Made by a program: the position numbers and the translations under genes. A stretch of DNA of 64,000 nucleotides from the NCBI GenBank assembly GCA_002067325.1, contig MVQY01000037.1, positions 3,343 through 67,342 on the forward strand, in the 5' to 3' direction. The notes under the pieces were generated by a model. The model was not told where the DNA came from, searched no databases, and was given only the letters and a program-made list of their open reading frames with translations. The stretch is from Methanobacterium sp. PtaU1.Bin097 (GTDB lineage Archaea > Methanobacteriota > Methanobacteria > Methanobacteriales > Methanobacteriaceae). Positions 4,154 through 59,293 of the stretch are shown piece after piece (positions within the stretch are counted from its first letter, which is position 1; each line of letters begins with the position of its first letter).

Positions 4154-4264
4154 ATTCTACCAATCCTTTAATTTTTAAAGTCTAATTTTCTTTTATATTC
4201 TAATTCTAATCTTTTAATTCTAATCTTATTAAATCCTAGTTCTAATTTTTTTTAAATTCTAATT

Positions 4265-5776
4265 CTAAACCTTTTCAATCAAACCCTCAATAACACTCAT
4301 ATCAATATTATCTTCAAATATATACGCCAGCCGATCGATGGAGAACCTTTTTAAATCTTCAAAGTCGTCCCTGACAAATCCTAGTTCATCAAGGCCCTTT
4401 TCCTTCCGCAGAAGGTCGGTGAAAAACCTCCTGAAGTGGAAGTTGTGGAATACACCATGGAAGTAGGTGCCTGCCACCTGGTCTGCTACTGCACCGTCGT
4501 ACCCTGAACCGGGGCCGTTACCAACACCTTTAATGATCCTGAAGAGTGGTTTAACATCACCTAAGACGGTGGTGCCTTCGTGTAATTCGTAGCCGTCCAC
4601 CAGGTTTCCTTTGAAGCTTTTAAACATGCCGTTTCCCAGTAGTTCACCCTGGCTCTGGGTTATTATCTTATCCACCTTGCCGAAACTGGTTTTCATATCC
4701 AGGAGCCCAATCCCGTCCACGGAACCATACTTGGACTCTTTAAGGGTTTCATCTAAAATTTTAGTCCCCATCATCTGGTAACCACCGCAGAGACCAAAGA
4801 TAGGTATCTCCTTTGAGATGGTTTGGATATCATCCACGAAACCAGCCTCCTCTATGGCCATCATGTCGTTGATGGTGTTTCTGGTCCCGGGGAGTATTAA
4901 AGCATCTACCTTTCCCATGTTGTCTCCCAGTTCAATGAGTTCAATCCCAATATCTGGCTCATATTCCAGGGGGTCTATATCGGTGAAGTTGGCTATGCGG
5001 GGGAAGCGCATCAATCCCATGGAGATCTTCTCATTTTTACTGAACTTATGTTCCGATAGGGAGGCGGAATCTTCCTCTGGAAGCTTAAGGCTTTCATCAT
5101 AGGGGATGACCCCTAAAATTGGCACCCCTACTATCTCTTCTATCTGCTCTATCCCAGGCATCAGTATATCCAGGTTACCACGGAACTTGTTAATTATAAT
5201 CCCCTTTATCCTTTTGCGATCTTCTTCTGGTAAGAGAGAGAAGGTACCGGCGATGGAGGCGAAAACACCTCCCCGGTCGATATCTGCCACCAGGAGCACG
5301 TCGGCATCGGCCAGTTCTGCGATCTTCATGTTGGCCATATCCACGTCCAGCATGTTGATCTCCGCTGGAGAACCCGCACCTTCAATTACCACTATTTCAT
5401 ACCTGTCTTTCAGGTAATCCAGGGAAGTTTTAATGGCTTTAAGTGCTTCCTCCCGGAAATTATTCTGGTAATGGTAAAAATTCATATCCCCAGCGGGTTT
5501 TCCATGAACTATGACCTGGGAGATGAAATCTTCCTTGGGCTTTAGGAGGATGGGGTTCATATGATAGGATGGTTCCAGGCCGGCGGCTTCTGCCTGAAGC
5601 ACCTGGGCCATGGCTATTTCTGCATTTTCACTGGTGGTATAGGAGTTAAGGGACATATTCTGGGATTTGAAGGGAACCACCTGATAACCCCTTTTGGAGA
5701 ATATCCTGCATAGGGCAGCCACAACCACGCTTTTACCTGCGTTGGATGAGGTCCCCTGGACCATTATACACATCAT
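4265..5776 (-). CDS. cobQ: cobyric acid synthase
   Basis: 503 aa. N-terminal P-loop-like GTSSNAGKS, NPILLKP motif, C-terminal glutamine amidotransferase domain (GLCGGYQMMG). Confidence 0.9.
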   Translation of the reverse strand: MMCIMVQGTSSNAGKSVVVAALCRIFSKRGYQVVPFKSQNMSLNSYTTSENAEIAMAQVLQAEAAGLEPSYHMNPILLKPKEDFISQVIVHGKPAGDMNFYHYQNNFREEALKAIKTSLDYLKDRYEIVVIEGAGSPAEINMLDVDMANMKIAELADADVLLVADIDRGGVFASIAGTFSLLPEEDRKRIKGIIINKFRGNLDILMPGIEQIEEIVGVPILGVIPYDESLKLPEEDSASLSEHKFSKNEKISMGLMRFPRIANFTDIDPLEYEPDIGIELIELGDNMGKVDALILPGTRNTINDMMAIEEAGFVDDIQTISKEIPIFGLCGGYQMMGTKILDETLKESKYGSVDGIGLLDMKTSFGKVDKIITQSQGELLGNGMFKSFKGNLVDGYELHEGTTVLGDVKPLFRIIKGVGNGPGSGYDGAVADQVAGTYFHGVFHNFHFRRFFTDLLRKEKGLDELGFVRDDFEDLKRFSIDRLAYIFEDNIDMSVIEGLIEKV

Positions 5777-7991: not shown

Positions 7992-8030
7992 GATTTTAGG
8001 AGACAAATTCGAATTTTAGGAGATAAACTT
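7992..8030. repeat. 2-unit tandem repeat GA(A)TTTTAGGAGA(C/T)AAA, period ~19-20, downstream of lon
   Basis: GATTTTAGGAGACAAATTC (7992-8010) and GAATTTTAGGAGATAAACTT (8011-8030), followed by a T8 run. Confidence 0.7.
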
Positions 8031-8116
8031 TTTTTTATATCTCCATTGTTCACTTTTTTTGAAATTGAACCTGATTTTAATCTAATTTTTTATACAATTA
8101 AAAGGAAAATAACAAC

Positions 8117-9700
8117 ATGGAAAAACTAAATTTTAAAGACATAATATCTAAGCCAATGGAGAAGGCAGTACTCGATATGGGTTTTGAAGAGGCCACACCC
8201 ATCCAGTCCCTGGCCATACCCCACATCATGGAAGGTAGAGATGTGATAGGCCAGGCACAGACCGGAACAGGTAAAACCGCTGCCTTTGGAATTCCCATAT
8301 TAGAGAAGATCCATCCCCACCAAAAGGAACTACAGGCCATAATACTATGCCCCACCAGGGAACTGGCCATCCAAGTGGCAGAGGAACTGAAAAAACTCTC
8401 CAAATACCTGAAGAACATCCGAGTACTACCCGTCTACGGTGGCCAGCCTATAGAAAGACAGATCAAAGCACTGGATAAGGGCGTGCAGATAGTGATAGGC
8501 ACACCCGGCCGGGTCATGGATCATATGAGGCGGGGAACCCTGGACATGAGCAGTGTAAGAATCATAGTACTGGATGAAGCCGATGAAATGTTAGATATGG
8601 GCTTTAGAGATGATATTGAATTTGTTTTAAGGGATATGCCTGATGAAAGGCAGATGTTACTCTTTTCAGCGACCATGTCCCGGGAAATACTCAGGTTAAC
8701 CAAGAAATATCAGGACGATCCGGAATTTTTAAAGGTAGTTCCCCAGGAACTCACCGTCCCGGAAACCCAGCAGATATACTTCGAAGTCAAGGAGAAGATG
8801 AAACTGGACTTACTATCCCGATTACTGGACATACACAACCCCAACCTCTCCCTGGTATTCTGCAACACCAAGAGACGCGTCGACCGATTGGTAAGCCACT
8901 TACAGGTAAGGGGATACCTGGCTGATGGCCTGCACGGTGATCTCACCCAGAAACAGAGGGACCGGGTGATGAACAAGTTCCGCAAGGGAACCATCGACGT
9001 CCTGGTGGCTACCGATGTGGCTGCCCGGGGGATCGACGTGGATGATATAGAAATAGTCTTCAACTACGACGTACCAAACGATGATGAATACTACGTCCAC
9101 CGTATCGGCCGGACAGGTAGAGCGGGTAAAAATGGTAAAGCATTCACCTTCGTATCTGGTAAGGAAATCTACCGGTTGAGAGATATACAAAGGTATACTA
9201 AAACCAGTATAGAACAGCAGGAGATACCAACCTTACGCCACGTGCAGGAGATGAAGACCGACCAGTTCATCAAGAAGGTAAAAAATGTCATAAACACCGA
9301 GGATCTGGATAAACAGATACTCATAGTGGAAAGGTTGATAGAAGAAGATTACACTTCCCTGGAAACCGCGGCAGCCCTGTTGAAGATGGCCATGACCGAG
9401 GAAAATACCGATGGTGAATCAGATAACGGCTTTGGAGATACTGGTGCGAGTATAGGTATGGTACGATTCTTCCTGAATATTGGGCGCAAAGACAGAGTCA
9501 AGGCAAAGGATATAGTGAGGGCTGTAGGGGATAAAACAGGCCTCTCCAGTAGCGTAATAGGTAAAGTCGATGTTTACGATAAGTTTTCCTTCATGGAAAT
9601 ACCGGATAGCAGCGCTAAGGATGTGTTTTCCATTATGAGGGGTGCTAAAATTAAGGGAAGATCGGTGAACATAGAACCGGCTAATAAGAGGATGAAGTAG
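8117..9700 (+). CDS. DEAD-box ATP-dependent RNA helicase with DbpA-like C-terminal RNA-binding domain
   Basis: Q motif (F..ATPIQ), AQTGTGKT, PTRELA, DEADEML, SAT, VATDVAARGID, HRIGRTGRAG. C-terminal RRM-like extension. Confidence 0.92.
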   Translation: MEKLNFKDIISKPMEKAVLDMGFEEATPIQSLAIPHIMEGRDVIGQAQTGTGKTAAFGIPILEKIHPHQKELQAIILCPTRELAIQVAEELKKLSKYLKNIRVLPVYGGQPIERQIKALDKGVQIVIGTPGRVMDHMRRGTLDMSSVRIIVLDEADEMLDMGFRDDIEFVLRDMPDERQMLLFSATMSREILRLTKKYQDDPEFLKVVPQELTVPETQQIYFEVKEKMKLDLLSRLLDIHNPNLSLVFCNTKRRVDRLVSHLQVRGYLADGLHGDLTQKQRDRVMNKFRKGTIDVLVATDVAARGIDVDDIEIVFNYDVPNDDEYYVHRIGRTGRAGKNGKAFTFVSGKEIYRLRDIQRYTKTSIEQQEIPTLRHVQEMKTDQFIKKVKNVINTEDLDKQILIVERLIEEDYTSLETAAALLKMAMTEENTDGESDNGFGDTGASIGMVRFFLNIGRKDRVKAKDIVRAVGDKTGLSSSVIGKVDVYDKFSFMEIPDSSAKDVFSIMRGAKIKGRSVNIEPANKRMK

Positions 9701-9745
9701 AGCTAATAAAAGAATAAAATAGAGCTAATAAAAGAATAAGTAAAA
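9680..9745. repeat. 3 x 22-nt tandem array whose first unit encodes the helicase C-terminus and stop codon
   Basis: GCTAATAAGAGGATGAAGTAGA (9680-9701), GCTAATAAAAGAATAAAATAGA (9702-9723), GCTAATAAAAGAATAAGTAAAA (9724-9745). Confidence 0.9.
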
Positions 9746-12344: not shown

Positions 12345-12590
12345 TTTTTATCCCCTACTCTGCCGTTAAGAAATCAAAAATTTCTACAGTAGAAATACGT
12401 TCCAGATTAACTTCTCATTATTAAACTCTGCTTAAACATCTATAAAAAGTATTTTCTTTTTCTTTTTATAGCATATCTAATTTAAAGAAAAATTCACTGT
12501 TCATGTTTTGTTTAAAGTTAAATAGAAACATTTTTTAAGGCATATTGACATAAAAATAAATATTAAAATAAGTAAGAGGAGGTGTAAGGT

Positions 12591-13070
12591 ATGGCAAAAA
12601 CTTCAACCGGTATATTGTTGATAATTTTGGGTTTAATTGTTTTGGCCCTCCCACTAGCAGGATTAATTGCCGTGAGTTGGCTCACAGGCTTTGCTCTTGC
12701 CCTTTTGGGAATTGGACTTTTAATATTCGGATACGGTGACACCAAAGAAAGCACTGCTCTAGGCGTAATAGAGATTATCCTGGGAATAATAGCCATAATA
12801 TTTGGTATTGGATTTATAGTCTCTCCTGCATTATTCGCCTTTGTAGCCGGATTCTTGATATATCTCGCTGGTATTTTCCTAGTTATAGTCGGTCTGATCG
12901 CCATATTCGCTGCAGCAGGCGCCAGATGGAACGGAGTAGTAACCCTGATAATCGGTCTCATATACCTGATACTGGGATACTTCGTATCAGATCCATTCTA
13001 TCTCGGCGTATTAATCGGTCTCTGGCTGCTCATCGTGGGAATAATGAACGTACTCCAGAAGGAAGACTAA
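12591..13070 (+). CDS. DUF308/HdeD-like membrane protein
   Basis: 159 aa made of repeated ~20-aa hydrophobic hairpins (GILLIILGLIVLALP...). GAGGAGGTG RBS. Confidence 0.65.
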   Translation: MAKTSTGILLIILGLIVLALPLAGLIAVSWLTGFALALLGIGLLIFGYGDTKESTALGVIEIILGIIAIIFGIGFIVSPALFAFVAGFLIYLAGIFLVIVGLIAIFAAAGARWNGVVTLIIGLIYLILGYFVSDPFYLGVLIGLWLLIVGIMNVLQKED

Positions 13071-13210: not shown

Positions 13211-13582
13211 ATGCACGAATTATCCATGGCTGATGCCATAGTGAAGACCGTACTGGATGTTGCAGAGAAAAATCAAGCAGAAGAAATACTGGAAGTAACC
13301 ATCGAGGTAGGCAAACTCACCATGCTCAATCCTGAGCAATTAAGATTCCTTTTAGATGTTTTAAAAGAAAACACGTTACTGGAAGGGGCTGAAATAATAA
13401 TAGAAGAGATACCAGTGGAAATTAAATGTCTCTCCTGTGGTTATGCTGGATCGACCAATCTTAATGATTCTGATCACTATTTGATGATAGTCAAATGTCC
13501 GGAGTGTGATGAAAGAAACCTGGAGATAGTTACTGGACAAGAATGTAACGTAAAAAACATCCGTATTGAAAAGCCTGAATAA
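13211..13582 (+). CDS. hypA: hydrogenase nickel-incorporation protein HypA
   Basis: MHE N-terminal Ni-binding motif. Zn-ribbon CxxC...CxxC (CLSCG...CPECD). Confidence 0.9.
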   Translation: MHELSMADAIVKTVLDVAEKNQAEEILEVTIEVGKLTMLNPEQLRFLLDVLKENTLLEGAEIIIEEIPVEIKCLSCGYAGSTNLNDSDHYLMIVKCPECDERNLEIVTGQECNVKNIRIEKPE

Positions 13583-13658
13583 AAAATATAAATTCCAAAA
13601 TTCTAATAATCCAAATATTATAAATTCTGATAGTTCCAATATTGTAAAATTCTAATAA
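13571..13658. repeat. about 4-unit degenerate tandem array (~25-bp period) starting in the last codons of hypA
   Basis: AAGCCTGAATAA (13571, includes the stop), AAATTCTAATAA (13598), AAATTCTGATAG (13622), AAATTCTAATAA (13647). Each of the last three is preceded by a TCCAA(A)(A/T)ATT segment. Confidence 0.75.
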
Positions 13659-13702
13659 AATTGATTTTAAAAAATATTACCAAACTTTGGAAGTGAATAG
13701 AT

Positions 13703-14362
13703 ATGCATAAAATCGCAGATGTAGAGATACAGCACGACATAATGGTGGCCAATAAAAAGCTCGCCCAGAGAAATCAGAGAATCCTAGATAAAGCCAACGT
13801 ATTTTCAGTGGATGTTTTAGGAGCCATAGGCTCAGGTAAAACATCACTCATCGAACTTTTAATAAAAAAATCTGATGAAAAGATAGGTGTCATAGCCGGT
13901 GACGTCATCAGCAAATTCGACGCCGGCCGGTTCCAGCAATATGACATACCAGTGGTAGGCTTAAACACTGGTAAAGAATGCCACCTGGACGCCCATCTGG
14001 TGGAACACGCCATAGAAGACATGCCTTTGGACGAAATAGACACACTCTATATTGAAAACGTGGGAAACCTCATCTGTCCCGTTGACTTCGACTTAGGAAG
14101 CCACATGCGCATGGTGGTGATCAGTGTCAGTGAGGGAGACGACACCGTGGAAAAACACCCCCTGATCTTCAAGGACGCCGACCTGATAGTCATAAACAAG
14201 ATAGACATCGCAGATGCAGTGGGTGCAGACGCGGAAAAGATGGTAAAAGATGCTAAATACCTAAACCCTGATGTTAAAATAATAAAAAGCAGCCTTAAAA
14301 CAGAAGAAGGATTGAATGAGATCATTAAGGCAATAAAAGATTTCAGAGATAGCATCAACTAG
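13703..14362 (+). CDS. hypB: hydrogenase nickel-incorporation GTPase HypB
   Basis: P-loop GAIGSGKTS, ENVGNLICP metal-binding CP motif, NKID guanine-specificity motif. Confidence 0.92.
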   Translation: MHKIADVEIQHDIMVANKKLAQRNQRILDKANVFSVDVLGAIGSGKTSLIELLIKKSDEKIGVIAGDVISKFDAGRFQQYDIPVVGLNTGKECHLDAHLVEHAIEDMPLDEIDTLYIENVGNLICPVDFDLGSHMRMVVISVSEGDDTVEKHPLIFKDADLIVINKIDIADAVGADAEKMVKDAKYLNPDVKIIKSSLKTEEGLNEIIKAIKDFRDSIN

Positions 14363-14486
14363 TTTAGATTAAAATTATCTACTGGGTTTGATTAAAGATC
14401 GACTAGATCTTCTAATTAAACATCACTAGATATGTTAAAACATTCAACTACATCTGATTGAAAACATCGCCTGGATCGAATTAATT
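14351..14486. repeat. 6-unit degenerate tandem array (period 21-24 bp) whose first unit is the hypB 3' end and stop codon
   Basis: Anchors: ATCAACTAG (14354, contains the stop), ATCTACTGG (14377), ATCGACTAG (14398), ATCACTAG (14422), TTCAACTAC (14443), ATCGCCTGG (14466). Each is followed by a ...GATTAAA-like tail. Confidence 0.85.
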
Positions 14487-14513
14487 TACTTAATACAATA
14501 TATTGGTGATTCA

Positions 14514-15539
14514 TTGAAAGTATGGATAGACATAGTAAACGCGCCGCATGTTTGGTTTTTCAAGAACATAATAAAATATCTGGAAGATGAGGGTGAAGAG
14601 GTGTTCATCACCGCCCGTAAGTTTGGTGATGTCCATCAGCTTATGGACTTATTTGATCTCCCCTACACTTCGGTGGGCAGGCACGGTGCCACCCTGGAAC
14701 AGAAGCTTCTGCGGAGCACAGAAAGGGTTTACAACCTATCGAAGATCATCGAAAAAGAAAAACCAGATGTAGCGGTGTCTAAACATTCAATTGAACTTCC
14801 CAGGGTGTCTTTCGGACTTAAAATACCCAGTGTGTATGTGCTGGATAATGAACATGCCATAGCAGCAAACAGGCTCACACTACCCCTCTGTAATAAGATT
14901 GTAGTACCAAAGGCCATGAGCGTATGGGATGTGCTGAAAATCGGTGCAGATCCCAATGCACTGGTACGTTACAATGGAACATCGGAGGTTATACACTTCG
15001 TGGATTTCCAGTATAACCCAAACATCTTCGAAGATTTGAATTTGGATTTAAATAAGGATAAGACCATACTGATGAGGCCGGAACCCGCCCTGGCATCCTA
15101 CCTTGACGCTGACTGCCATGAATCTGTCTTGTCTCCAATCGTGGAAAATATTGGGGAATATGCAAATATCCTGGTCATCCCCCGATTTAAACAACAGCAG
15201 GAAATATTCGCTGGCAACGAGAATGTAACCATAATCAAACCACCAGTGGACACATTCAGTCTGATGAAAAGATGTGATCTGGTGATTGGTGCGGGAGGTA
15301 CCATGAACCGGGAGGCAGCCCTTTTAGGAACCCCAGTCATATCCTGTTACCCCGGGAAATTACTCGCCGTGGATGGATTCTACATTGAAAAAGATCTTAT
15401 GAAGAGATCACAGGACATAGGCGAAATAGTTGACCTGGCACTGGAACTCATGATGGAACATAAGGTAAAAAAACAGCTTAAAACCGATGATCTTCTCCAG
15501 ATCATGATAGATAATATATATGGTGCGGTGGAAGGTTAA
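14514..15539 (+). CDS. DUF354 family protein (GT-B/epimerase-like fold, function unknown)
   Basis: 341 aa. N-terminus KVWIDIVNAPHVWFFKNII is typical of DUF354 as I remember it. TTG start with GGTGAT RBS. Confidence 0.65.
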   Translation: MKVWIDIVNAPHVWFFKNIIKYLEDEGEEVFITARKFGDVHQLMDLFDLPYTSVGRHGATLEQKLLRSTERVYNLSKIIEKEKPDVAVSKHSIELPRVSFGLKIPSVYVLDNEHAIAANRLTLPLCNKIVVPKAMSVWDVLKIGADPNALVRYNGTSEVIHFVDFQYNPNIFEDLNLDLNKDKTILMRPEPALASYLDADCHESVLSPIVENIGEYANILVIPRFKQQQEIFAGNENVTIIKPPVDTFSLMKRCDLVIGAGGTMNREAALLGTPVISCYPGKLLAVDGFYIEKDLMKRSQDIGEIVDLALELMMEHKVKKQLKTDDLLQIMIDNIYGAVEG

Positions 15540-15598
15540 TCCTACTTACCTGTAAAGTTAATCCCACCTGATTTAAAGTTAATCCTATTTGATTTAAA
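15535..15598. repeat. 3 x 21-22-nt tandem array beginning at the stop codon of the DUF354 gene
   Basis: GTTAATCCTACTTACCTGTAAA (15535-15556, contains TAA stop 15537-15539), GTTAATCCCACCTGATTTAAA (15557-15577), GTTAATCCTATTTGATTTAAA (15578-15598). Confidence 0.9.
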
Positions 15599-15640: not shown

Positions 15641-15715
<75 letters not shown>

Positions 15716-16312: not shown

Positions 16313-16425
16313 CTGGGGCTTATAGTTATATTTAAGAGGAAAAAAATTAAATAGATAAATTCTAAAATTATATTCTTAAAATCTTACATTAAAATTCTTA
16401 AAACTTTCAAAATAGGGAGAATTCA

Positions 16426-21869: not shown

Positions 21870-22190
21870 ATGAAGGAAGAGGTATTTTACAGCACAGGAA
21901 TGAAGAAGATTAAAGAGGACTACCCGGATCTTTACCAGGCAAGTGTGGATTTAAACGAAGCAGCTTACACTGGAAAGGTCCTTGACTATAAAACTCAGAA
22001 GCTGATAGCCCTGGGTATAACCGCAGCGAATTCTGATGATAGGGCTACTAAAAAACAGATACTCAGTAACATGCAGGAATTCGGAGCGACCAAAGACGAA
22101 ATAATGGATGTCCTGAGGGTGGTCCTGCTGATTGCAGGTAAACCAGCCTTTATGAAGGCGGTTAATATCCTGTATAAAATTGAAAAATAG
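21870..22190 (+). CDS. carboxymuconolactone decarboxylase (AhpD-like) family protein
   Basis: 106 aa all-helical. LDYKTQKLIALGITAA motif is typical of the CMD family. Confidence 0.75.
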   Translation: MKEEVFYSTGMKKIKEDYPDLYQASVDLNEAAYTGKVLDYKTQKLIALGITAANSDDRATKKQILSNMQEFGATKDEIMDVLRVVLLIAGKPAFMKAVNILYKIEK

Positions 22191-22399
22191 TTTTTAACTT
22201 TTTTTAAGTCTTTCTTTTTTTTTAGAAGTATTCTTTTTTTTAAAAAATTTTTTTTTAGATCAGGCAATTTTTGATTGGGGCCCATATATTTTATCTGGTA
22301 CTCTATTATATTATATTTAAATCCATTATCTAAAACCTAGTATATTTACCTGAAATTCTCCACGGCAGCGAAAATGGGAGGATATTAATTTTTTAATGT

Positions 22400-27177: not shown

Positions 27178-27870
27178 ATGGTAACTCTTGAAGACGCAGT
27201 AATAGCCCGACTGGAATATTACGGCGAACACTTTGAAATTCTGGTAGACCCAGACCTGGCTGCTGATTTCAAGAGGGGTAAAGAGATAGAACTGGAAGAC
27301 ATACTGGCCGTGGAAGAGATATTCAAGGATGCTAAGAAAGGAGATAAAGCATCCGAAGAGGCCATGTTAAAGGCTTTTGAAACCACCGACCCAGCTGAAG
27401 TCGCTGCCTTTATAATAAAAAAAGGACAGGTGCAGTTAACTGCCCAGCAACGTAAAGAGATGCAGGAAGAAAAGAGGAAGATGATCGTAGCTACCATAAC
27501 CAGGGAAGCAATAAATCCTCAGACAAAACTTCCCCATCCAGCAAGAAGAATAGAAATAGCCATGGAAGAAGCTAAAATACACGTAGACCCATTTAAGAGC
27601 GTTGATGAGCAGGTTACAGAGACCTTAAAAGCCATCCGTACCAAGATACCCATCAAATTTGAAAAGGTCCAGGTAGCCATAAAGATACCGGGGGACGTCC
27701 AGGGGAAAGTGTACAGCATCATCCCCGAATTCGGGACCACTAAAAACGAGGAATGGCAGCGGGATGGTTCATGGATAGCTGTGGTGGAAATACCCGGCGG
27801 TATGCAGGACAACTTCTATCAAAGGTTGAACGAGTTAACCCACGGACAGTTAGAGACCAAACTATTATAA
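27178..27870 (+). CDS. ribosome maturation protein SDO1/SBDS homolog
   Basis: 230 aa. [23 protein letters not shown]-domain start. Superoperon position after psmA. Confidence 0.88.
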
Positions 27871-27991
27871 AAATTACCCATAAACCAATATCAAAATATT
27901 ATAATACATAACCAATGTTATTAATAACGATACCAAACAGAGTACTATAGGAGACTTATTCTTATTTTTTCTTAAAATAGGAGGATTTTCA

Positions 27992-34080: not shown

Positions 34081-34170
34081 AGATTTTTTAAGGATTCCTA
34101 GAATAAACTTTCCTTTTATCCTGGTTTCCTGAGATAAATTATTATTCTGGTTTCTTTTAAGATGAATTAT
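34070..34170. repeat. about 4-unit degenerate array (~28-31-bp period) starting at the stop codon of the PfkB-like gene
   Basis: AGAAAATAAAG (34070, contains the stop), TAGAATAAAC (34099), TGAGATAAAT (34130), TAAGATGAAT (34158). The last two units also share TAT(C/T)CTGGTTTC (34117, 34143). Confidence 0.65.
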
Positions 34171-34377: not shown

Positions 34378-34428
34378 CTAACTTGTATTTGATCGGTAAA
34401 ATTTATTAATTTAACGGTTTTATTCTAA

Positions 34429-35397
34429 TCAATTTATAGTTTCTATTCTAATCAATTTACAGTGTACCATCCAGGCTGCTTGTGTTGTGCCTGGAGGATA
34501 ACAGGTTACCAGGGTAAGGTTGTTGTCTCCTGGTGGGAATTTTATGGGGTCGGTTTTATAGTCCCATTTAATATCTCCATTGGACACCACCTGATAAATA
34601 TATTTCCTCTGGGTAAGATAGTCATTTATCACCACTTCATCTTCTGGCTTGAGCTGGTTGATACTTTTAAATGGGGCTGAAAAAATAGTACGATGACCTA
34701 ACAAACCCATGGTGCCGTTTTGATCGGGATAGGAACTTTCACCGTAATAAAAAACAGAATTATATCCATTTACTGTATCTGAACGAATTCCCCAGTTTAC
34801 ATCCAAGGATGGGATTGATACACTGCCCCAGAAGGGAGTTTTCGCGGGTATTAATACTGAATTTACTTTAAAGTTATTTTTGATGACTTCAAAGCCATAC
34901 TGGGCAGTTAAGATTTCCATATTGGAGGTGGAACCAAGATCATTCAGGGGGTCACCTGAGATCACCTTTTGGGTGTAGATGACGGTGTATAGATTACCAT
35001 TTTTGGGTACCCATACCTCCTTTTGCAGGTAGATATTTCCATCTCTTTCGATCTTATAGGTATTTTCGTAGATAACATCCATATTAATGGTTTTCTTGTT
35101 AGAGGAAATCAACCTGAATCCGGAATCGTATGCGGTGGTGGAGTTAAGGATGTAATCTTCCGGGGACTGATACCCTGGAGGGATGACCTGTTTGTTGATG
35201 TTTATGTTCAAATTAGGTGATGGTTGGAATGATACCACCTGCGATGAGTTAGAGCCTGGTTTTTCGTCCCAACCCTGGGGATAATCAAAGGAAATTTCCC
35301 CATCATCATAGTGTTTGGTCAGTCCAAAGTTGAAGCCAAGGTATGCTGCTGATATGATTATTAAAATTAATACAATCAGAGATAAGTGTTTTTTCAT
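34429..35397 (-). CDS. sortase-family transpeptidase with N-terminal signal anchor and extra beta-rich domain
   Basis: C-terminal domain has catalytic His (LLGHRT), the TLVTC Cys motif and a downstream Arg (KLIRIE). N-terminal TM (LSLIVLILIIISAAYLGF), then a ~150-aa domain starting ISFDYPQGW. Confidence 0.8.
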   Translation of the reverse strand: MKKHLSLIVLILIIISAAYLGFNFGLTKHYDDGEISFDYPQGWDEKPGSNSSQVVSFQPSPNLNININKQVIPPGYQSPEDYILNSTTAYDSGFRLISSNKKTINMDVIYENTYKIERDGNIYLQKEVWVPKNGNLYTVIYTQKVISGDPLNDLGSTSNMEILTAQYGFEVIKNNFKVNSVLIPAKTPFWGSVSIPSLDVNWGIRSDTVNGYNSVFYYGESSYPDQNGTMGLLGHRTIFSAPFKSINQLKPEDEVVINDYLTQRKYIYQVVSNGDIKWDYKTDPIKFPPGDNNLTLVTCYPPGTTQAAWMVHCKLIRIETIN

Positions 35398-37993: not shown

Positions 37994-38115
37994 GTACATA
38001 CTCTTTAGCAGAAATACTATTAAACCTTTTATAAAATTGATCAAAAAAAATTCTATTAGAAAATTCTATTAAAAAAAATTTGTTTATAAAAAGAAATTTA
38101 CACGATGCATTTCAC

Positions 38116-38787
38116 CTAAAAAAATGCATCCAGACTGCTCTGTTTTTCCTTATGAATAATATCCTCCTTAGGATAACCCACAGCCTCTATAATTCGGGTA
38201 ACAGCCGGTAAAACCTGATTATCAATGTAGTATGATGGATCGTACTGGGAGACATCGGCGTCTTCCAGGGGAACCGCCCTTTGACTGATGGCTTCCCTCC
38301 CCCTTACCACCACGTATCTGATGATGGTACCGGGACCAACCTTCCTACCCTTCGCCATGGCCTTTTTAGCAGCCATCACATGGGGTGCGCTTTGAACGTA
38401 TTCCTCGGGGTTTTTGGTTAGCTGGGTGTGGATCACCAGATTTTCCAGGGAGATATTCCCATCCTTTATCTCCTGCATAGTATCCTGAACGATTCTCACG
38501 GCCTTCTGGGGTGATCCTTCCTCCAGCAAGGCCCTTAATACTTTTTCCTGGGTTTTTTTAGCTACAGGGGCCCAGTCTCGCCTGACAAGTTCCAGGCCCT
38601 TTACCACGATGTTGCCGTCCTGTATCAGGGCGTACCGTTTCTTGGTTACGAAGAAGCCCCTCTGGAAAAAACCCTCAAACTCAAGCTCCATACCTTCTGG
38701 AAGGTCCTGATTAACCTGGGAAGTGAAGCTTTGTGCTTTATCTTTGATCTCTAAAAATCGGCTGTTATCATTCAACCAGTACACCAT
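38116..38787 (-). CDS. polB: family-B DNA polymerase, small C-terminal subunit of a split PolB (palm end plus thumb)
   Basis: 223 aa, collinear with the region of euryarchaeal PolB that follows the YxDTD motif: LEFEGFFQRGFFVTKKRYALI (KxY motif), GLELVRRDW, VIHTQLTK, YYIDNQVLPAV. Exonuclease, motif A and DTD are absent. Clean start and stop. Confidence 0.88.
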   Translation of the reverse strand: MVYWLNDNSRFLEIKDKAQSFTSQVNQDLPEGMELEFEGFFQRGFFVTKKRYALIQDGNIVVKGLELVRRDWAPVAKKTQEKVLRALLEEGSPQKAVRIVQDTMQEIKDGNISLENLVIHTQLTKNPEEYVQSAPHVMAAKKAMAKGRKVGPGTIIRYVVVRGREAISQRAVPLEDADVSQYDPSYYIDNQVLPAVTRIIEAVGYPKEDIIHKEKQSSLDAFF

Positions 38788-43515: not shown

Positions 43516-44178
43516 ATGAGAAATATAAAAAATTTTATCTCAACCAACATGTTCATGGGCGCTTCAACCAAACAGGGCCATGAAATTGCCACAAAAAGCA
43601 GAAAAATAGTGAAATCCCTGATAGATGATAAAACCAGGCACCTGAAACCGGAAGAGAGATCCATAGTGGAGAGGATAGTGCACTCCACAGCCGACCCAGA
43701 ATATGCGGAAATCACCAGGATGAGCCCGGATTTTGTAGATGAAAGCTTAAAATCAATCCAGGCCGGTAAGGACATATTGACCGATATAAACATGGTGAAA
43801 GTGGGTATAAATAAATATCCCGGTAAAGTCAGGTGCTACATCAACCATGAAAAGACCCTGGAAATTGCAAAAAGGGAAGGAATAACCCGGGCAGCCGCCG
43901 CCATGCAGGTCGCTGCAGAGGATGGATTCGACGGCATAGTGGCCATAGGAAACTCACCAACCGCCTTGCTCGAAGTCCTGGAGTTAACCCGGAAGGACCT
44001 GATGAAGGTAAAATCAGTAATAGGTGTCCCAGTAGGATTTGTAGGGGCTGCTGAGGCAAAAAAAGCACTGGATGAAACTGACATCCCTCATCTAATAACC
44101 GGGGGGCCTAAAGGCGGGACTCCCGTGGCGGTTGCGGCTGTAAATGCCCTGATCAATCTTGATAAAGCATCGAGATGA
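43516..44178 (+). CDS. cbiC: cobalt-precorrin-8 methylmutase
   Basis: IVHSTADPEYA motif, INMV...I, IGNSPTAL, GGPKGGTPVAVA; CbiC/CobH pattern. Confidence 0.88.
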   Translation: MRNIKNFISTNMFMGASTKQGHEIATKSRKIVKSLIDDKTRHLKPEERSIVERIVHSTADPEYAEITRMSPDFVDESLKSIQAGKDILTDINMVKVGINKYPGKVRCYINHEKTLEIAKREGITRAAAAMQVAAEDGFDGIVAIGNSPTALLEVLELTRKDLMKVKSVIGVPVGFVGAAEAKKALDETDIPHLITGGPKGGTPVAVAAVNALINLDKASR

Positions 44179-44273
44179 CTTGTTTTATTTAAAAAGGGGA
44201 TTTCATTGATTGATTTAAAATAGGGATTTATAAGGATAATTAAAAATTCTATGGATTTAAAGGAGAATACACC

Positions 44274-45527: not shown

Positions 45528-45595
45528 ATTTACCAAACTCCTTTTAAATTAATCTATTAAATTTCTTTTAAATCAATCAATGGAGTCCCCTTTTT

Positions 45596-45652
45596 AAATA
45601 AATAAAAACAGTAAAACCACGACTTTCAAATAAATAAAAACAGTAGAACCAC
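45596..45652. repeat. 2 x 25-nt direct repeat; one copy encodes the C-terminus and stop of the minus-strand gene, the other lies just downstream
   Basis: AAATAAATAAAAACAGTAAAACCAC (45596-45620) and AAATAAATAAAAACAGTAGAACCAC (45628-45652), period 32, one mismatch. Confidence 0.9.
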
Positions 45653-46204
45653 CACTACAACGATAACTACCAGAATAATAAATAAAGGAGTTTTTAAAAA
45701 ACCAGTAAATGTGAGTTTCTCACTCTCATATGCCTTGGTCCGCTGTTCTCTTACGATGGACATCAACCTATCTTCATTATCTGAGATATCATCCAGGAGT
45801 CTTTTCTGATTTTTGATATCAGCCTGCAGATTTCTTTCGTTTAAAACATCCCATACTGTCCATCTTTCCTCTTTGATCTCGTTGAGCAGTTCTTCCTGGA
45901 TATGTATATGTTTGGAAAGATTTTTAATTATGGCCTTTCTTTTTGCTGATTTACTCTTAAGCAAGGTCAGTAACTGCTCTATTTCTTCTGTATCGTCCAA
46001 TTCATCAAGCCCGGAATAATGATCAGAAGATTGGGTAGGTAGACTTTCAATGAATTCTAACTCCCATCCACATTCACATGAGACAAAATCATCCTTACTC
46101 TCACCATCCTGAAGACGGTAGTAACCCTGACATTTTCTACAATACAGATACCCATTAGATTCAAGTGGGAGTTGTTGTTTAGTAGCATCTTTAGGTGTGG
46201 TCAT
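45626..46204 (-). CDS. Zn-ribbon / coiled-coil / C-terminal TM (tail-anchored) protein, function unknown
   Basis: 192 aa. CRKC...CEC ribbon, long charged helix, C-terminal PLFIILVVIVVVVVLLFLFI anchor. Confidence 0.6.
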   Translation of the reverse strand: MTTPKDATKQQLPLESNGYLYCRKCQGYYRLQDGESKDDFVSCECGWELEFIESLPTQSSDHYSGLDELDDTEEIEQLLTLLKSKSAKRKAIIKNLSKHIHIQEELLNEIKEERWTVWDVLNERNLQADIKNQKRLLDDISDNEDRLMSIVREQRTKAYESEKLTFTGFLKTPLFIILVVIVVVVVLLFLFI

Positions 46205-46339: not shown

Positions 46340-47035
46340 ATGACGATAATTGCTGGTGTGGGGGGAAATAAAAATATAATAACCGCCTCACAGAGGGTAG
46401 ATTTCCCTGTGCAACTGGTGGATTCTCCAGAAGAATTTGTAGAGTCCATAATAGGTAATAAAGCTCAGGCCTATGTAAGGGGGTCCCTGGGTGCTTCCCA
46501 GATTATGGCTGGACTGAAAAACAGGTATAAGGAATTCTATCGTGCGTCTTTTATAGAAATTAAGGGGCATAAATTTTTCCTGGCACCAGTGGGCATCGAT
46601 GAAGGGGACCATCTGGAACAGAAACTGCAGATAATAAAGCTGGGGGCACGATTCCTGGAAAAAATTAATATTAAACCTAAAATAGCCATACTTTCCGGTG
46701 GCAGAGTCCAGGATCTTGGAAGAAGCCAGAAGATCGATAGATCCATTGCAGAGGGAGAGTTGTTAACAGAGATCACAAGGAATAAATATCCAGTTAAACA
46801 TCATCATATATTGATTGAAGAAGCAATTCATGATAATTCAAATTTTATACTGGCACCAGATGGTATCACCGGGAATTTAATATTCAGATCTCTTGTTTTA
46901 TCAGGATGTGGAGAAAGCCATGGCGCTGTAACCCTGGGAATGGACGTGATATTAATCGATACTTCACGATCCCTCACAGTGGAAGGTTATACCCGGGCGT
47001 TGAAATTCGCCAAATACCTGATGGATTCAGTGTGA
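46340..47035 (+). CDS. methanogenesis marker protein 4 (Mmp4/MtxX-like, phosphotransacetylase-like fold)
   Basis: 231 aa. ...AYVRGSL...[11 protein letters not shown]...IAILSGGR...[16 protein letters not shown]. Assignment is from memory of the marker family. Confidence 0.6.
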
Positions 47036-47095
47036 TGAGGTATTAGAATTGATGGAAGAGGAAAGTTGAAATTCGCCAAATACCTGATGGATTCA
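46999..47095. repeat. perfect 31-bp direct duplication of the 3' coding end of the MtxX-like gene, 66-bp period
   Basis: GTTGAAATTCGCCAAATACCTGATGGATTCA at 46999-47029 (codes ...[10 protein letters not shown]) and again at 47065-47095, downstream of the stop. Confidence 0.95.
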
Positions 47096-47281
47096 AAGAT
47101 TAATAACCTTAGAAATAAAATTTAGCAATTATTTGAAATGGAAAATAAGATTAAAAAGAAAAAAAGCACTGATTTAAGTAAATAATAGGTCAATAAGCAT
47201 CTTTTTTATATCTGATTATGATAGTTTATTTTTTATAGGATCACTTATAAATCTAAATATACTAAGATGCTGGGAGTAACA

Positions 47282-48049
47282 ATGTCACTTTTAAAACCAC
47301 TATATACAGTATACGAATGGTACATCTCTCGAAATCTCCGTACAGAAAACATGCCCAGACACGTAGCCCTAATAATGGACGGTAACAGAAGATACTCCAA
47401 AATACAGGGTGACATGGATTCAATTGAAGGTCACAAACGGGGAGTGGACACCCTGGAAAAGGTGCTGGACTGGTGTATTGATTTAGGGATAGAGATAGTC
47501 ACCGTATACGCATTTTCCATAGAAAACTTTAAAAGACCACCAGAGGAAGTAAAAGGTTTAATGGAACTATTCAAGTACAACTTCGCATCCATAGCCCAAA
47601 ATAAAAGGATCCATAAAAACGAAGTAAAGCTAAAGGCGGTGGGTAAACTGGAACTCTTACCGGATGATGTAAGAGAAGCCATAAGACATGCGGAAGAATC
47701 CACCAGCAAATACAATAAAAGACAGGTAAATATCGCTATAGGATACGACGGACGTTTAGAAATAGTCGATGCCATGCAGAAAATAGCAGATCAGGTTAAA
47801 GATGGTAAACTCGACCCAGAGGATATAGATGAAAAGGTTATAAATGAAAATCTATACACCGCCGGACTGGCGGACCCCAACCTGATCATAAGAACCAGTG
47901 GAGAAGAAAGACTCAGCGGATTCTTACTCTGGCAATCATCCTACAGTGAACTCTATTTCTGTGACAGTTTATGGCCACAACTCAGGAAAGTAGATTTCCT
48001 AAGGGCTTTAAGAGATTACCAACAGAGGGAAAGAAGGTTTGGGGTATAA
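47282..48049 (+). CDS. uppS: cis-prenyltransferase (undecaprenyl diphosphate synthase family)
   Basis: [51 protein letters not shown] signatures. ATG 47282 is preferred over 47267. Confidence 0.92.
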
Positions 48050-48190
48050 TAATTAGGAGTTGTAAATTTTTTATTTTCATAAGGTGGGGTTAATTATTAG
48101 ATACAGATAGAATTTCTTTTATTTTCATTAGGGGGGTTTAAAATTCAGATAGGAATAGGATTTTTTTTATTTTCATTCAGACTGGAGGTT
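48050..48190. repeat. 3 x ~47-bp tandem units, each ending in TTTTATTTTCAT plus a G-rich block
   Basis: ATTTTTTATTTTCATAAGGTGGGGTT (48066-48091), ATTTCTTTTATTTTCATTAGGGGGGTTT (48112-48139), ATTTTTTTTATTTTCATTCAGACTGGAGGTT (48160-48190). Units 2 and 3 also share an AGATA..ATAG.A prefix. Confidence 0.8.
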
Positions 48191-48237: not shown

Positions 48238-48987
48238 ATGATCGACGCACACTGCCATGTAGACTTCAAAGAATACAACAAAAACAGGGGAGAAGTAATG
48301 CAAAGGGCCCAGGAGAAACTACGGGCCATCATCAACTCCGGAGCAAGTCTAGGTGGTAACCGGCGCACATTAAAACTGCAAGAAGAATATCCTGGATTTC
48401 TATATGCCACTCTTGGTTTCCACCCACACAATGCAGTTAAAGCCGATTCTACGATTATAGACCAGGCCCTAGGGGAAATTGTTGATAATATAGATAAAAC
48501 AGTGGCCTTAGGCGAGACAGGTCTTGATTTCCACCAGATAAAGGGTGAAGAACAAAAAAAGAGACAGATAGATATATTTAAAAGATTTATAGATTTGGCG
48601 GTTGAGTTTGAAAAGCCCCTGGTTATACACGCCCGTGATTCTGAGGAAACCGCCCTGAACATGGTAAAAAACACAGTACCCCAGGTTATATTCCACTGCT
48701 ATGGGGGCAACGCCCGGACAGCCAGTGCAATAGTAGATGAAGGGTACTACCTATCCTTATCAACCATCATCAGCTTTTCCGACCACCACCAGGAACTGGC
48801 AAGGGAAATCCCCCTCTATAGCATGCTCACAGAAACTGACAGTCCCTACCTATCCCCATTTAAAGGCCGTAATGAACCAGCATACGTGGAAGAAGTGGTG
48901 AAGACCGTTGCCCAGGTAAAGGATACAAGCAGGGACGAGATTGACCGGGTAACCCAAAAAAATGCAGAAAAAATTTTCAGGTTGTAA
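48238..48987 (+). CDS. tatD: TatD-family metal-dependent hydrolase
   Basis: [10 protein letters not shown] start, [29 protein letters not shown] motifs. Confidence 0.9.
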
Positions 48988-53208: not shown

Positions 53209-53252
53209 AATTACCTAAAATAAGTTATTTTTTAACATCCTCGAGGGCATGT

Positions 53253-54047
53253 TTACTTCTTAACATCCTCAACCAAGTATTTAATATCTTCATCATCCAG
53301 TTTACGGGTTATGATATTGGTCATCTTACCCACGGCAAAGACCAGTACGTTGAGGCCCCTTTTGGCGGCGGCCACGGCTGCCTCAGGGGTTGCAAATTCA
53401 AAATCAGCCTGTATACCTAATTTTTCCGCAACCACCCGGGACACGGTTCCCATTATTCCCATGCGGTCGATTTCTTCCTTCCTGTCCGTCAGGATGTCTT
53501 TAATTTTTTCCAGATCAGAGGCACTTGAACCGCCCTGATTGATGGTTGGAAGCTTAATTATAATTACATATCCGGGATCAAGTTCTATGAGTCCACTTAA
53601 CTTGGTGAGTGCCACGTCTTCACCTTCCCTGGCGTCGCTCAGCACTTCTGCATGGGCGGGTGTTTCACTGGTGGTGGCGTAGAGAACTCCTTTATCCATC
53701 TCCATCCAGACTTCATCACCGGATTTAAGTTCTTCCCGGGCTATGGCTGGCCATATGGATTTATAAGCATTCATGGTATCCAGGACCTGTTCTGAATACT
53801 TTCTAAGGTCCATGGCCTCACGCTTAACCCTTTCAATACCCCTCTTGGTGATCTTGTAGTGGACGTGTCCCTTACCAGTTTCAACCAGACCTTCATCGAC
53901 TAAACTTTTGATATTTTCTGAGACGGCCTGGACTGTTATTCCCAGCTCCTCTGCAATGTCTTTCTGACGCAGATGAGGCTCCTGCTTGGCTATTTCTGCC
54001 AGTATCTGGAAACGGGTGAGTTCACCCTTCTTTTTAAAGACCTTCAT
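53253..54047 (-). CDS. winged-helix transcriptional regulator with C-terminal uncharacterised domain
   Basis: N-terminal wHTH ([45 protein letters not shown]). About 190-aa C-terminal domain of unknown function. Confidence 0.65.
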
Positions 54048-59188: not shown

Positions 59189-59227
59189 CTTCTTTCACCT
59201 ATATTCGTAGCCTTTCGCCTAATATTA

Positions 59228-59293
59228 ATAGCCAGATAATTATTATACCATAGCCAGATAATTATTATACCAATGCTAGATAATTATTATACT
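59228..59293. repeat. 3 x 22-bp tandem repeat in the purC-purS spacer
   Basis: ATAGCCAGATAATTATTATACC (59228-59249), an identical copy (59250-59271), and AATGCTAGATAATTATTATACT (59272-59293). On the gene strand each unit carries TATAATAATTAT. Confidence 0.95.

Follow-up and report, generated by a model that had tools for sequence, protein, structure and literature searches.

Short tandem arrays at and past gene ends in a Methanobacterium clade: probable fast-turnover duplications without anchoring at stop codons

Across 5374 prokaryotic genomes, tandem repeats are known to be enriched past stop codons and ahead of start codons, with a mean genome coverage of 2.1% (PMC12418385). In the 64-kb stretch of Methanobacterium DNA analyzed here (the window), repeats covered 1.49% of the sequence as measured with a different tool. 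A first-pass annotation had noted, at nine places in the window, gene ends whose last codons and stop codon seemed to open a short tandem array, and had considered this pattern undescribed; the general pattern is already published, and the arrays are a known kind of feature. Like the intergenic tandem repeats of other prokaryotes (PMC12418385; 10.64898/2026.02.28.708716), they consist of local sequence copied head-to-tail, are scarce in coding DNA and enriched past stops or before starts, may be flanked by partial copies, gain or lose units between relatives, and have decayed older copies. Nothing essential was different; the distinguishing points were a roughly three-fold density in this clade and a lack of unit polymorphism within the species. 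A literature search yielded no publication dealing specifically with repeats that overlap stop codons in Methanobacterium.

Three further systems resemble the arrays in part. The repeats of the Borg elements of Methanoperedens (PMC9879509) are likewise archaeal, with units of about 20 nt that are locus-unique, independently arisen and accompanied by partial repeats at the flanks. Borg repeats, however, are perfect, have at least three units, vary within populations and in about half of cases lie in frame inside ORFs, whereas the units described here match one another at 74-93%, are fixed in the species and hardly occur in coding DNA. We rejected perfect tandem repeats of the Borg type on the basis of this matching and the lack of variation in six same-species assemblies. 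Iterons are direct repeats of about 22 bp bound by replication initiators; compared by sequence only, the arrays have this period in common with them, but show no cross-locus consensus or initiator gene, are scattered after housekeeping genes and are unconserved. Finally, archaeal oligo-U terminators, which act with aCPSF1 (PMC8716108, PMC7515710), lie in 3′ flanks as the arrays do, and a minority of the arrays duplicate a T-run; most array units, however, carry none, the canonical T-tracts are separate, and the arrays are unconserved.

The tandem repeats themselves proved real at all nine places. In gapped self-alignment the observed score was reached by none of 200 dinucleotide shuffles at any of them, with z-scores of 20 for MtxX, 12 for both the minus-strand Zn-ribbon gene and DUF354, 8.8 for the DEAD-box helicase, 8.5 for hypB and 6.8 for the trkA spacer; the lowest three were lon (4.5), hypA (3.7) and PfkB (3.4). 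The weakness of the hypA and PfkB values, and the many TRF matches in shuffles of very AT-rich relatives, would fit chance similarity in AT-rich low-complexity DNA. Given the shuffle results, this explanation is extremely improbable and for the strong cases largely refuted: TRF found 14 arrays outside coding sequence in the window against about 0.4 in shuffles (4 versus 0.0 for stop-overlapping arrays, 10 versus 0.4 for other intergenic arrays), and orthologous spacers differ by whole units. The non-coding excess over shuffles had the same direction in about 80 related species, and head-to-tail direct copies exceeded composition-matched chance, as duplication predicts. Furthermore, six assemblies made independently from this species (98.6% nucleotide identity) had identical arrays, which are therefore not assembly artefacts. 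The degenerate hypB array was invisible to TRF at default scoring and was checked by hand alignment and gapped self-alignment.

The proposal that the first unit of each array contains both gene end and stop codon held at the DEAD-box, hypB, DUF354, minus-strand 45626 and MtxX genes, and was doubtful or absent at hypA, PfkB, lon and trkA. The hypB array (14345-14480, plus strand) comprises six units of 20-24 nt with the consensus CATCnACTAGATCTGATTAAA and a mean column identity of 67%; unit 1, CATCAACTAG, contains the gene end and the stop codon TAG. At DUF354 (15535-15598, plus strand) there are three units of 21 nt (GTTAATCC...), the first of which includes the TAA (GGTTAA). The DEAD-box helicase gene (8117-9700) is followed by three units of 22 nt (9680-9742, plus strand), of which unit 1 (9680-9701) is made up of the last six codons and TAG. 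Copies had been described as progressively more degenerate downstream; identity to unit 1 was instead flat in hypB (0.70, 0.74, 0.74, 0.71 and 0.61 in successive copies), in the DEAD-box array (0.82 and 0.82) and in DUF354 (0.68 and 0.73). Across the DEAD-box units G+C fell from 36% to 18%, and unit 2 differs from unit 1 by, among other changes, four G-to-A substitutions.

At hypA, about three 24-nt units lie between that gene and hypB (13597-13665, plus strand), and the supposed unit 1 (13571-13596), which spans the hypA stop, was only 50-54% identical to the others and is doubtful. The PfkB-family array (34085-34170, plus strand; about three degenerate units of 26-30 nt) begins some 5 nt, and at most about 17 nt, past the stop, which is excluded either way. 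Downstream of lon, a pair of units, each about 20 nt long (ATTTTAGGAGAyAAA; 7992-8030, plus strand), begins 4 nt past the stop; the second makes up the 5′ side of a hairpin, after which comes T8, and of these elements the relative L010 has the hairpin only. The TTCTAA-rich array with a period of about 23 nt (4197-4275) fills the spacer between trkA and a convergent cobyrinic-acid-synthase-like gene, and overlaps the stop of the latter (4265-5776, minus strand) rather than that of trkA; this spacer measures 111 nt in the window and 97 nt in L007.

The minus-strand Zn-ribbon gene (45626-46204) ends in two units of 32 nt (45592-45656, minus strand), the first being the end of the gene including its stop; the array is also found in L088. 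At MtxX (46340-47035) the last 11 codons recur 66 nt downstream (46999-47097, plus strand), and the downstream copy diverges 5 nt ahead of the stop. In L088 (96% nucleotide identity) one of the 66-nt units is missing, which gives the protein a different C-terminus; the tail variants we saw were ..MDSV*, ..IDSKINKP* and ..KDMG*. Within the MtxX unit, a 33-nt A copy is identical at 32 of 33 positions and the remainder is far more diverged, so that gene conversion or more than one event, not a simple duplication, is needed. A metagenome scan based on MtxX returned two loci only, too few for statistics. Three repeats missed in the first-pass annotation also contain stops (34429, 53253 and 27870): 2.3 units of 23 nt over the stop of a sortase-domain gene (34429-35397; array 34408-34463, minus strand); a repeat at a MarR/DUF7839 gene (53253-54047; repeat 53225-53270, minus strand), whose end GAGGATGTTAAGAAGTAA (last five codons plus stop) recurs 28 nt downstream as GAGGATGTTAAAAAATAA; and one at an SBDS-family gene (27178-27870; repeat 27858-27917, plus strand), whose end with TAA recurs about 34 nt downstream with indels.

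Other arrays lie wholly past a stop. The SAICAR synthetase gene is followed, from 7 nt past its stop, by three units of 22 nt (93% matches) and two of 21 nt (59192-59292, minus strand). On the plus strand, arrays follow the genes at 47267-48049 (48067-48177; 2.3 units of 48 nt, from 18 nt past the stop), 43516-44178 (44180-44229; 1.9 units of 26 nt, from 2 nt), 802-1233 (1267-1316; 2 units of 25 nt, from 34 nt) and 21870-22190 (22211-22256; 2.5 units of 19 nt with T8-T9 runs, from 21 nt), as well as an acetyltransferase gene (16356-16403; 2.2 units of 21 nt, from 44 nt), where TRF counted 2.9 copies in L008 and L009. On the minus strand, the gene at 38116-38787 has 2.3 units of 28 nt (38028-38091) from 25 nt past its stop. 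L088 is 14 nt shorter at both the 44180 and the 38028 arrays.

The position of the arrays is not tied to stop codons. Of the non-coding bases of the window 7.2% lay in repeats, compared with 0.35% of the coding bases, and arrays were depleted in coding sequence and promoter-proximal DNA, again as duplication predicts. Around gene ends, coverage rose from 0.4% at -45 nt through 5% at -15 and 10% at 0 to +14 to 22% at +45, declining beyond, with its maximum at +30 to +60 nt; the stop codon itself was covered in 6.6-6.7% of cases and a random intergenic base was covered about as often (4.1%). Among 18 arrays (64 kb of this genome), seven overlapped a stop, where random placement of each array in its own spacer predicted 8.1-10.5 overlaps, so that unit 1 does not include the stop beyond expectation. 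For scoring, the stop-anchored measure was confined to the gene end and stop codon; it replaced an earlier version that allowed rightward extension, in which internal spacer repeats inflated the swapped-downstream control.

These data bear on the suggestion that the arrays are the footprint of a mutational process specific to gene ends, such as damage or template switching tied to transcription termination or ribosome release, with a preference for stops. Overlaps with stops outnumbered those with starts by 33 to 7 across about 1400 genes, coverage was 22% in 3′ flanks and 9% in 5′ flanks, and all 18 window arrays lie 3′ of some gene, with none in eight divergent spacers. The excess of stop over start overlaps is also what selection predicts, as is the finding that, among 75 window genes (score at least 10), five gene ends were copied downstream and no start with its first codons was copied upstream. 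The mutational direction of the suggestion was right; its tie to gene ends was not, because the coverage maximum lies away from the stop and random placement yields at least as many stop overlaps as observed. Moreover, divergent 5′-5′ spacers of relatives (orthologous pieces of about 20 kb) carry 0.7-2.1 arrays per kb, similar to other spacer types, and zero arrays in the 1.6 kb of divergent spacer would arise in about 7% of cases by chance, an estimate from counts. The stop/start asymmetry is explained by the protection of promoters, which counts further against a gene-end process, and we regard such a process as quite improbable.

A recurrent period of about 22 bp had likewise been noted. 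The units might on this view be phased binding sites, spaced by some two turns of the helix, for a chromatin protein, a regulator or a 3′-end factor. Many window arrays do have periods of 19-26 nt, and some precede the start of the following gene (the hypA-hypB spacer and the 59228 array). The pooled periods, however, were broadly distributed between 12 and 32 nt and did not peak at 21, and we rejected a period of two helical turns for this reason. Units were unique to their locus; no k-mer was common to different arrays, and no core was conserved across units (as the column identity at hypB illustrates), loci or related species. A shared TTCTAA motif, apparent by eye, reduced in a k-mer count of 3′ flanks to the usual oligo-T bias. 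Furthermore, arrays appear and vanish between sibling species and are missing at 80-92% nucleotide identity, and the hypB array is about 96% identical between the window and L007 (our own count, from a few substitutions plus two short indels in about 150 nt), no more conserved than the 94.8% seen genome-wide. Phased binding sites are thus a very improbable explanation.

We assign a similarly small probability to the idea that selection favours the arrays as stacked fail-safe terminators, in which repeated stops, oligo-T or both would catch read-through translation or transcription. U-tracts are used in archaeal termination (PMC8716108), 6 of the 18 arrays have sense-strand runs of at least five T, and several duplicate a T tract (T9, T8 and T9 in the 22211 array, among the clearest such duplications and one of the six; two T8 tracts in the 38028 array; also the 48067 and 45592 arrays). 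The other 12, including hypA, hypB, DUF354 and DEAD-box, have no such run, and ordinary oligo-T signals sit separately in the 3′ flanks. TAG has been lost from three of the six hypB units, in-frame stops are present in AT-rich spacers regardless, and species at 80-92% identity have the same genes without the arrays. No Rfam model matched an array, and a known structured RNA family was rejected on that ground; scans for Rfam families, tRNAs and bacterial promoters or terminators gave nothing besides a tRNA-Ala at 15641-15714, the sole feature to reach the Rfam gathering score.

The origin of the units is local. Array units were absent elsewhere in the window, and the lone borderline match (the 44180 unit, 5 of 26 positions mismatched) was not a copy; a dispersed element of the MITE or REP type was rejected, there being no real copies beyond the arrays. 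At DEAD-box, the minus-strand 45626 gene, MtxX and MarR/DUF7839, unit 1 corresponds to the 3′ end of the gene itself. Judged from these comparisons, each array is locally derived. Alignment of orthologous regions showed the arrays to be lineage-specific, with copy number varying between sibling species that are 92-96% identical in nucleotide sequence; at 80% the arrays are missing. Whole units were gained or lost between close relatives: DEAD-box has three units in the window, two in L007 and none in L010; DUF354 has three in the window and L008, four in L007, two in L009 and none in L010 and beyond; hypB has six or none, its array being limited to the window species and L007 (L008, L009 and L010 have spacers of 40, 74 and 44 nt after hypB, respectively); and MtxX shows a difference of 66 nt. 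The six same-species assemblies did not differ in unit number, so that ongoing slippage is inferred from between-species differences only. In young two-copy arrays (n = 56), an extra in-phase match of at least 4 nt was present in 38% (4% by chance) and of at least 6 nt in 23% (0.6% by chance), in agreement with the microhomology arms reported in 10.64898/2026.02.28.708716. At the single empty sites of the DEAD-box, 38028 and 44180 loci microhomology was ambiguous, with AATAAG arms 2 nt out of phase at DEAD-box.

We therefore consider it probable that the arrays are ordinary fast-turnover short tandem duplications, driven by microhomology or slippage and filtered by selection. Replication slippage or microhomology-mediated tandem duplication would copy a local stretch head-to-tail (unit lengths are roughly 14-66 nt, mostly 19-32 nt), and further slippage would add or remove whole units. 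As the distribution of the arrays shows, selection purges duplications in coding sequence and near promoters or start codons, and survivors consequently accumulate in the free 3′ part of short spacers. Where the left edge of an event fell less than one unit inside a gene, the stop codon and last codons would be duplicated together, and such duplications would survive as well as intergenic ones because the protein is unchanged. The copy within the gene would stay constrained and downstream copies would drift to the AT-rich composition of the spacer, which would give the appearance of decaying gene-end echoes. No function of the arrays has been demonstrated, and their visible effects are on spacer length and occasionally on a protein's last few residues; some arrays may nevertheless have a secondary function. 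Repeats that seem to sprout from stops thus need no dedicated system, tolerated sites of short duplications being sufficient.

With shuffles subtracted, array density in this clade (the window species, L007-L009 and L088) exceeded that of most other sampled Methanobacterium loci about threefold, and neutral retention alone is insufficient to account for it. A heritably raised rate of 20-30-nt duplication, with arrays as a regular source of gene-end innovation, is a possible though unlikely reading, and its cause would perhaps be altered processing of Okazaki fragments or altered polymerase slippage. If it were true, arrays would swap protein C-terminal tails, as at MtxX, and separate overlapping operon genes: hypA and hypB overlap (ATGCATAA) in more distant species, and their spacer measures 120 nt in the window and L007, 156 in L008, 103 in L009 and 56 in L010. 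Such separation would make room for new internal promoters or terminators. The MtxX tail and the hypA-hypB spacing offer concrete cases of remodelling through neutral duplication and collapse, and the three-fold density, if genome-wide, would point to lineage differences in archaeal replication fidelity. The arrays are also good markers for very recent divergence of sibling Methanobacterium species. New arrays have arisen independently at the hypB gene end in L013 and L015, and L010 carries one of 5.1 units of 20 nt (97% matches) at a gene end that also bears an array in other species.

The first-pass annotation had reported tandem arrays after nine genes. Pfam matches support HypA, HypB (cobW family), DUF354, the DEAD-box helicase, Lon, TrkA, the PfkB-family kinase and methanogenesis marker protein MtxX, and a family scan of the so-called Zn-ribbon gene (45626..46204) matched no family. 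The repeats are legible by direct reading of the sequence at all reported places, and in gapped self-alignment each region outscored 200 of 200 dinucleotide-preserving shuffles (maximum z = 20 for MtxX; the lowest two 3.7 for hypA and 3.4 for PfkB). Six independent same-species assemblies (98.6% nucleotide identity) carry the arrays base-for-base, and they are therefore not assembly artefacts. TRF detected 4 stop-codon-overlapping arrays in the whole window versus 0.0 in ten spacer shuffles, 10 further intergenic arrays versus 0.4, and 1 start-codon-overlapping array versus 0.3. These results demonstrate that the repeats are real and that the shuffle control suggested in the annotation does not reproduce them; the observation as a whole is confirmed in part. 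The window belongs to a Methanobacterium species with a G+C content of 41%, the window HypB protein is identically encoded in GCA_022837835.1 and several metagenome assemblies, and hypB of MAG UBA279 shows 99% identity to it. Single-base length differences from other same-species assemblies were seen in the T8/T9 homopolymers at 4246-4253 and 8013-8020.

We found that the first unit includes the stop codon, as had been claimed, in the DEAD-box gene, hypB, DUF354, the 45626 gene and MtxX, and that the claim fails for hypA, PfkB, lon and trkA. The first hypA unit is only 50-54% identical to the other hypA units, the PfkB array starts 3' of the PfkB stop, the lon units begin 4 nt past the lon stop, and the stop overlapped on the trkA side belongs to a convergent gene. 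In MtxX, the downstream copy diverges just ahead of the stop. Stop-overlapping repeats missing from the original list lie at 27858-27917, 34408-34463 and 53225-53270. Progressive decay of the downstream copies was not borne out, identity to the first unit being flat along the arrays, and the proposed ~22-bp period is only part of a broad 12-32 nt spread with no peak at 21.

The anchoring score counts only downstream copies of the gene end together with its stop codon. Of 75 genes, 5 scored at least 10, compared with 0.2% when downstream regions were swapped, none of 75 start codons and, inside genes, 0 of 960; 4.1% of random intergenic positions scored as high. Metagene repeat coverage forms a ramp, from 0.4% at -45 nt through 5% at -15, 10% at 0 to +14 and 16% at +15 to 22% at +45 before declining, and is 6.6% exactly on the stop codon. 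Coverage 5' of start codons is at most about 9%, down to 3% in the final 15 nt. When the 18 arrays were randomised within their own spacers, with intrusion into a gene end limited to one period, 8.1 stop overlaps were predicted with no promoter zone protected and 10.5 with 40 nt protected, versus 7 observed. The first unit thus does not fall on the stop codon more often than expected, and the arrays are not anchored there. With spacers of ~60-250 nt, arrays that are 50-130 nt long will frequently reach a stop codon, and those that do are tolerated because the first copy preserves the reading frame and stop.

It has been reported for 5374 prokaryotic genomes that tandem repeats are rare in coding sequence, cover a mean of 2.1% of the genome and rise in frequency 3' of stop codons and 5' of start codons (PMC12418385). 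Because such placement is already reported there, the window arrays are further instances of a described phenomenon; their coverage is 1.49%, obtained with a different tool from that behind the 2.1%. With shuffles subtracted, array density in the window is similar to that of Methanobrevibacter-type genomes and ~3x that of most other Methanobacterium loci, a residue that the present explanation leaves unexplained. In the pooled loci L007-L086 of relatives, twenty TRF arrays with a period of exactly 76 nt form an outlier spike; tandem tRNA genes or some other element may account for it.

We compared hypB loci of 80 Methanobacteriaceae species (one scan of species-representative genomes) and two more loci from an MtxX metagenome scan. 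The DEAD-box array has 3 units in the window, 2 in L007 (siblings have 92-96% nucleotide identity to the window) and none in L010 (80.7%). DUF354 carries 3 units in the window, 3, 4 and 2 in siblings L008, L007 and L009, and none in L010 and beyond. The six-unit hypB array is present in L007, and the spacer is only 40 nt in L008, 74 nt in L009 and 44 nt in L010. Length differences between orthologous spacers concentrate in those that hold arrays. Other species have arrays of their own, unrelated to the window's, at these same gene ends: L013 and L015 after hypB, and L010 after the acetyltransferase gene. The L010 array (12495-12595) is the youngest of all those observed; its 20-nt unit (ATCAACCGAGTCTATAGTAA) is present in 5.1 copies with 97% matches, begins 24 nt past the acetyltransferase stop and has no counterpart in the window clade. 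A few substitutions and two short indels separate the hypB arrays of the window and L007; at ~96% identity (our count) the array is no more conserved than the genome (94.8%).

Some gene ends have been remodelled. More distant Methanobacterium species (junctions of L016-L023) have hypA and hypB overlapping or directly adjacent (ATGCATAA or TGATTAACTATG), and the window clade has between them a spacer of 103-156 nt consisting mostly of repeat units (13583-13702 in the window; 120 nt there and in L007, 156 in L008, 103 in L009, 56 in L010), which may uncouple translation or make space for an internal promoter. The presence or absence of a 66-nt unit gives close relatives different MtxX tails: the window (46999-47097) ends ..YLMDSV*, sibling L088 (10655-10760; 96% identity), which lacks one unit, ..YLIDSKINKP*, and L087 (4153-4260) ..YLKDMG*. 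The variable tail lies outside the conserved MtxX profile, which matches as far as residue 224 of 231. A 33-nt downstream copy is identical to the coding copy at 32 of 33 positions and the remainder of the unit has diverged much further, a pattern suggestive of gene conversion or of multiple events.

Downstream copies are richer in AT than the coding copy; G+C of the DEAD-box units falls from 36% to 18%, and unit 2 has four G-to-A changes relative to unit 1. The third unit shares the changes of unit 2 and was therefore copied from it rather than from the gene. When 56 young arrays of two copies were pooled across species, an extra in-phase match of at least 4 nt occurred in 38% versus 4% expected, and of at least 6 nt in 23% versus 0.6%. 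In bacteria, archaea and eukaryotes alike, such a signature has been reported for microhomology-mediated tandem duplication (preprint 10.64898/2026.02.28.708716), by which the arrays probably formed. Selection filters them, as their distribution shows. Of the gene-end-specific mutational footprint proposed in the annotation, the footprint is retained and the gene-end specificity is not (7 overlaps against 8.1-10.5 predicted).

Stacked terminators and phased binding sites had also been proposed. In 12 of 18 arrays the sense strand has no stretch of at least five T, and 3' flanks carry a normal oligo-T bias independent of arrays (T7, 39 sense versus 10 antisense). TAG is kept in only 3 of 6 hypB units, unit sequences are private to their own locus, and an RNA family search gave no match for the arrays. 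The interpretation as a whole is partly supported.

Directly after the lon stop, a hairpin followed by a T-run occurs in the window (8013-8046) and in L010, L012, L013, L016, L021 and L022, with a stem that varies by species (GGAGATA..TATCTCC in the window, GGAGAAA..TTTCTCC in L010). Judged by sequence, it looks like a conserved hairpin-plus-oligo-T element, which is not how archaeal terminators are usually described. A 48-nt unit is repeated 2.3 times at 48067-48177, immediately ahead of gene 48238..48987, each copy with a T-run and a AGGTGGGG-like purine motif; the array may duplicate a terminator or ribosome-binding region. Finally, DUF354 faces a convergent tRNA-Ala(GGC) (15641-15714, minus strand), which has a T6 run after it on the tRNA strand; the position of the tRNA is retained in all relatives, directly after hypB where DUF354 is missing (L017, L018, L020, L021).
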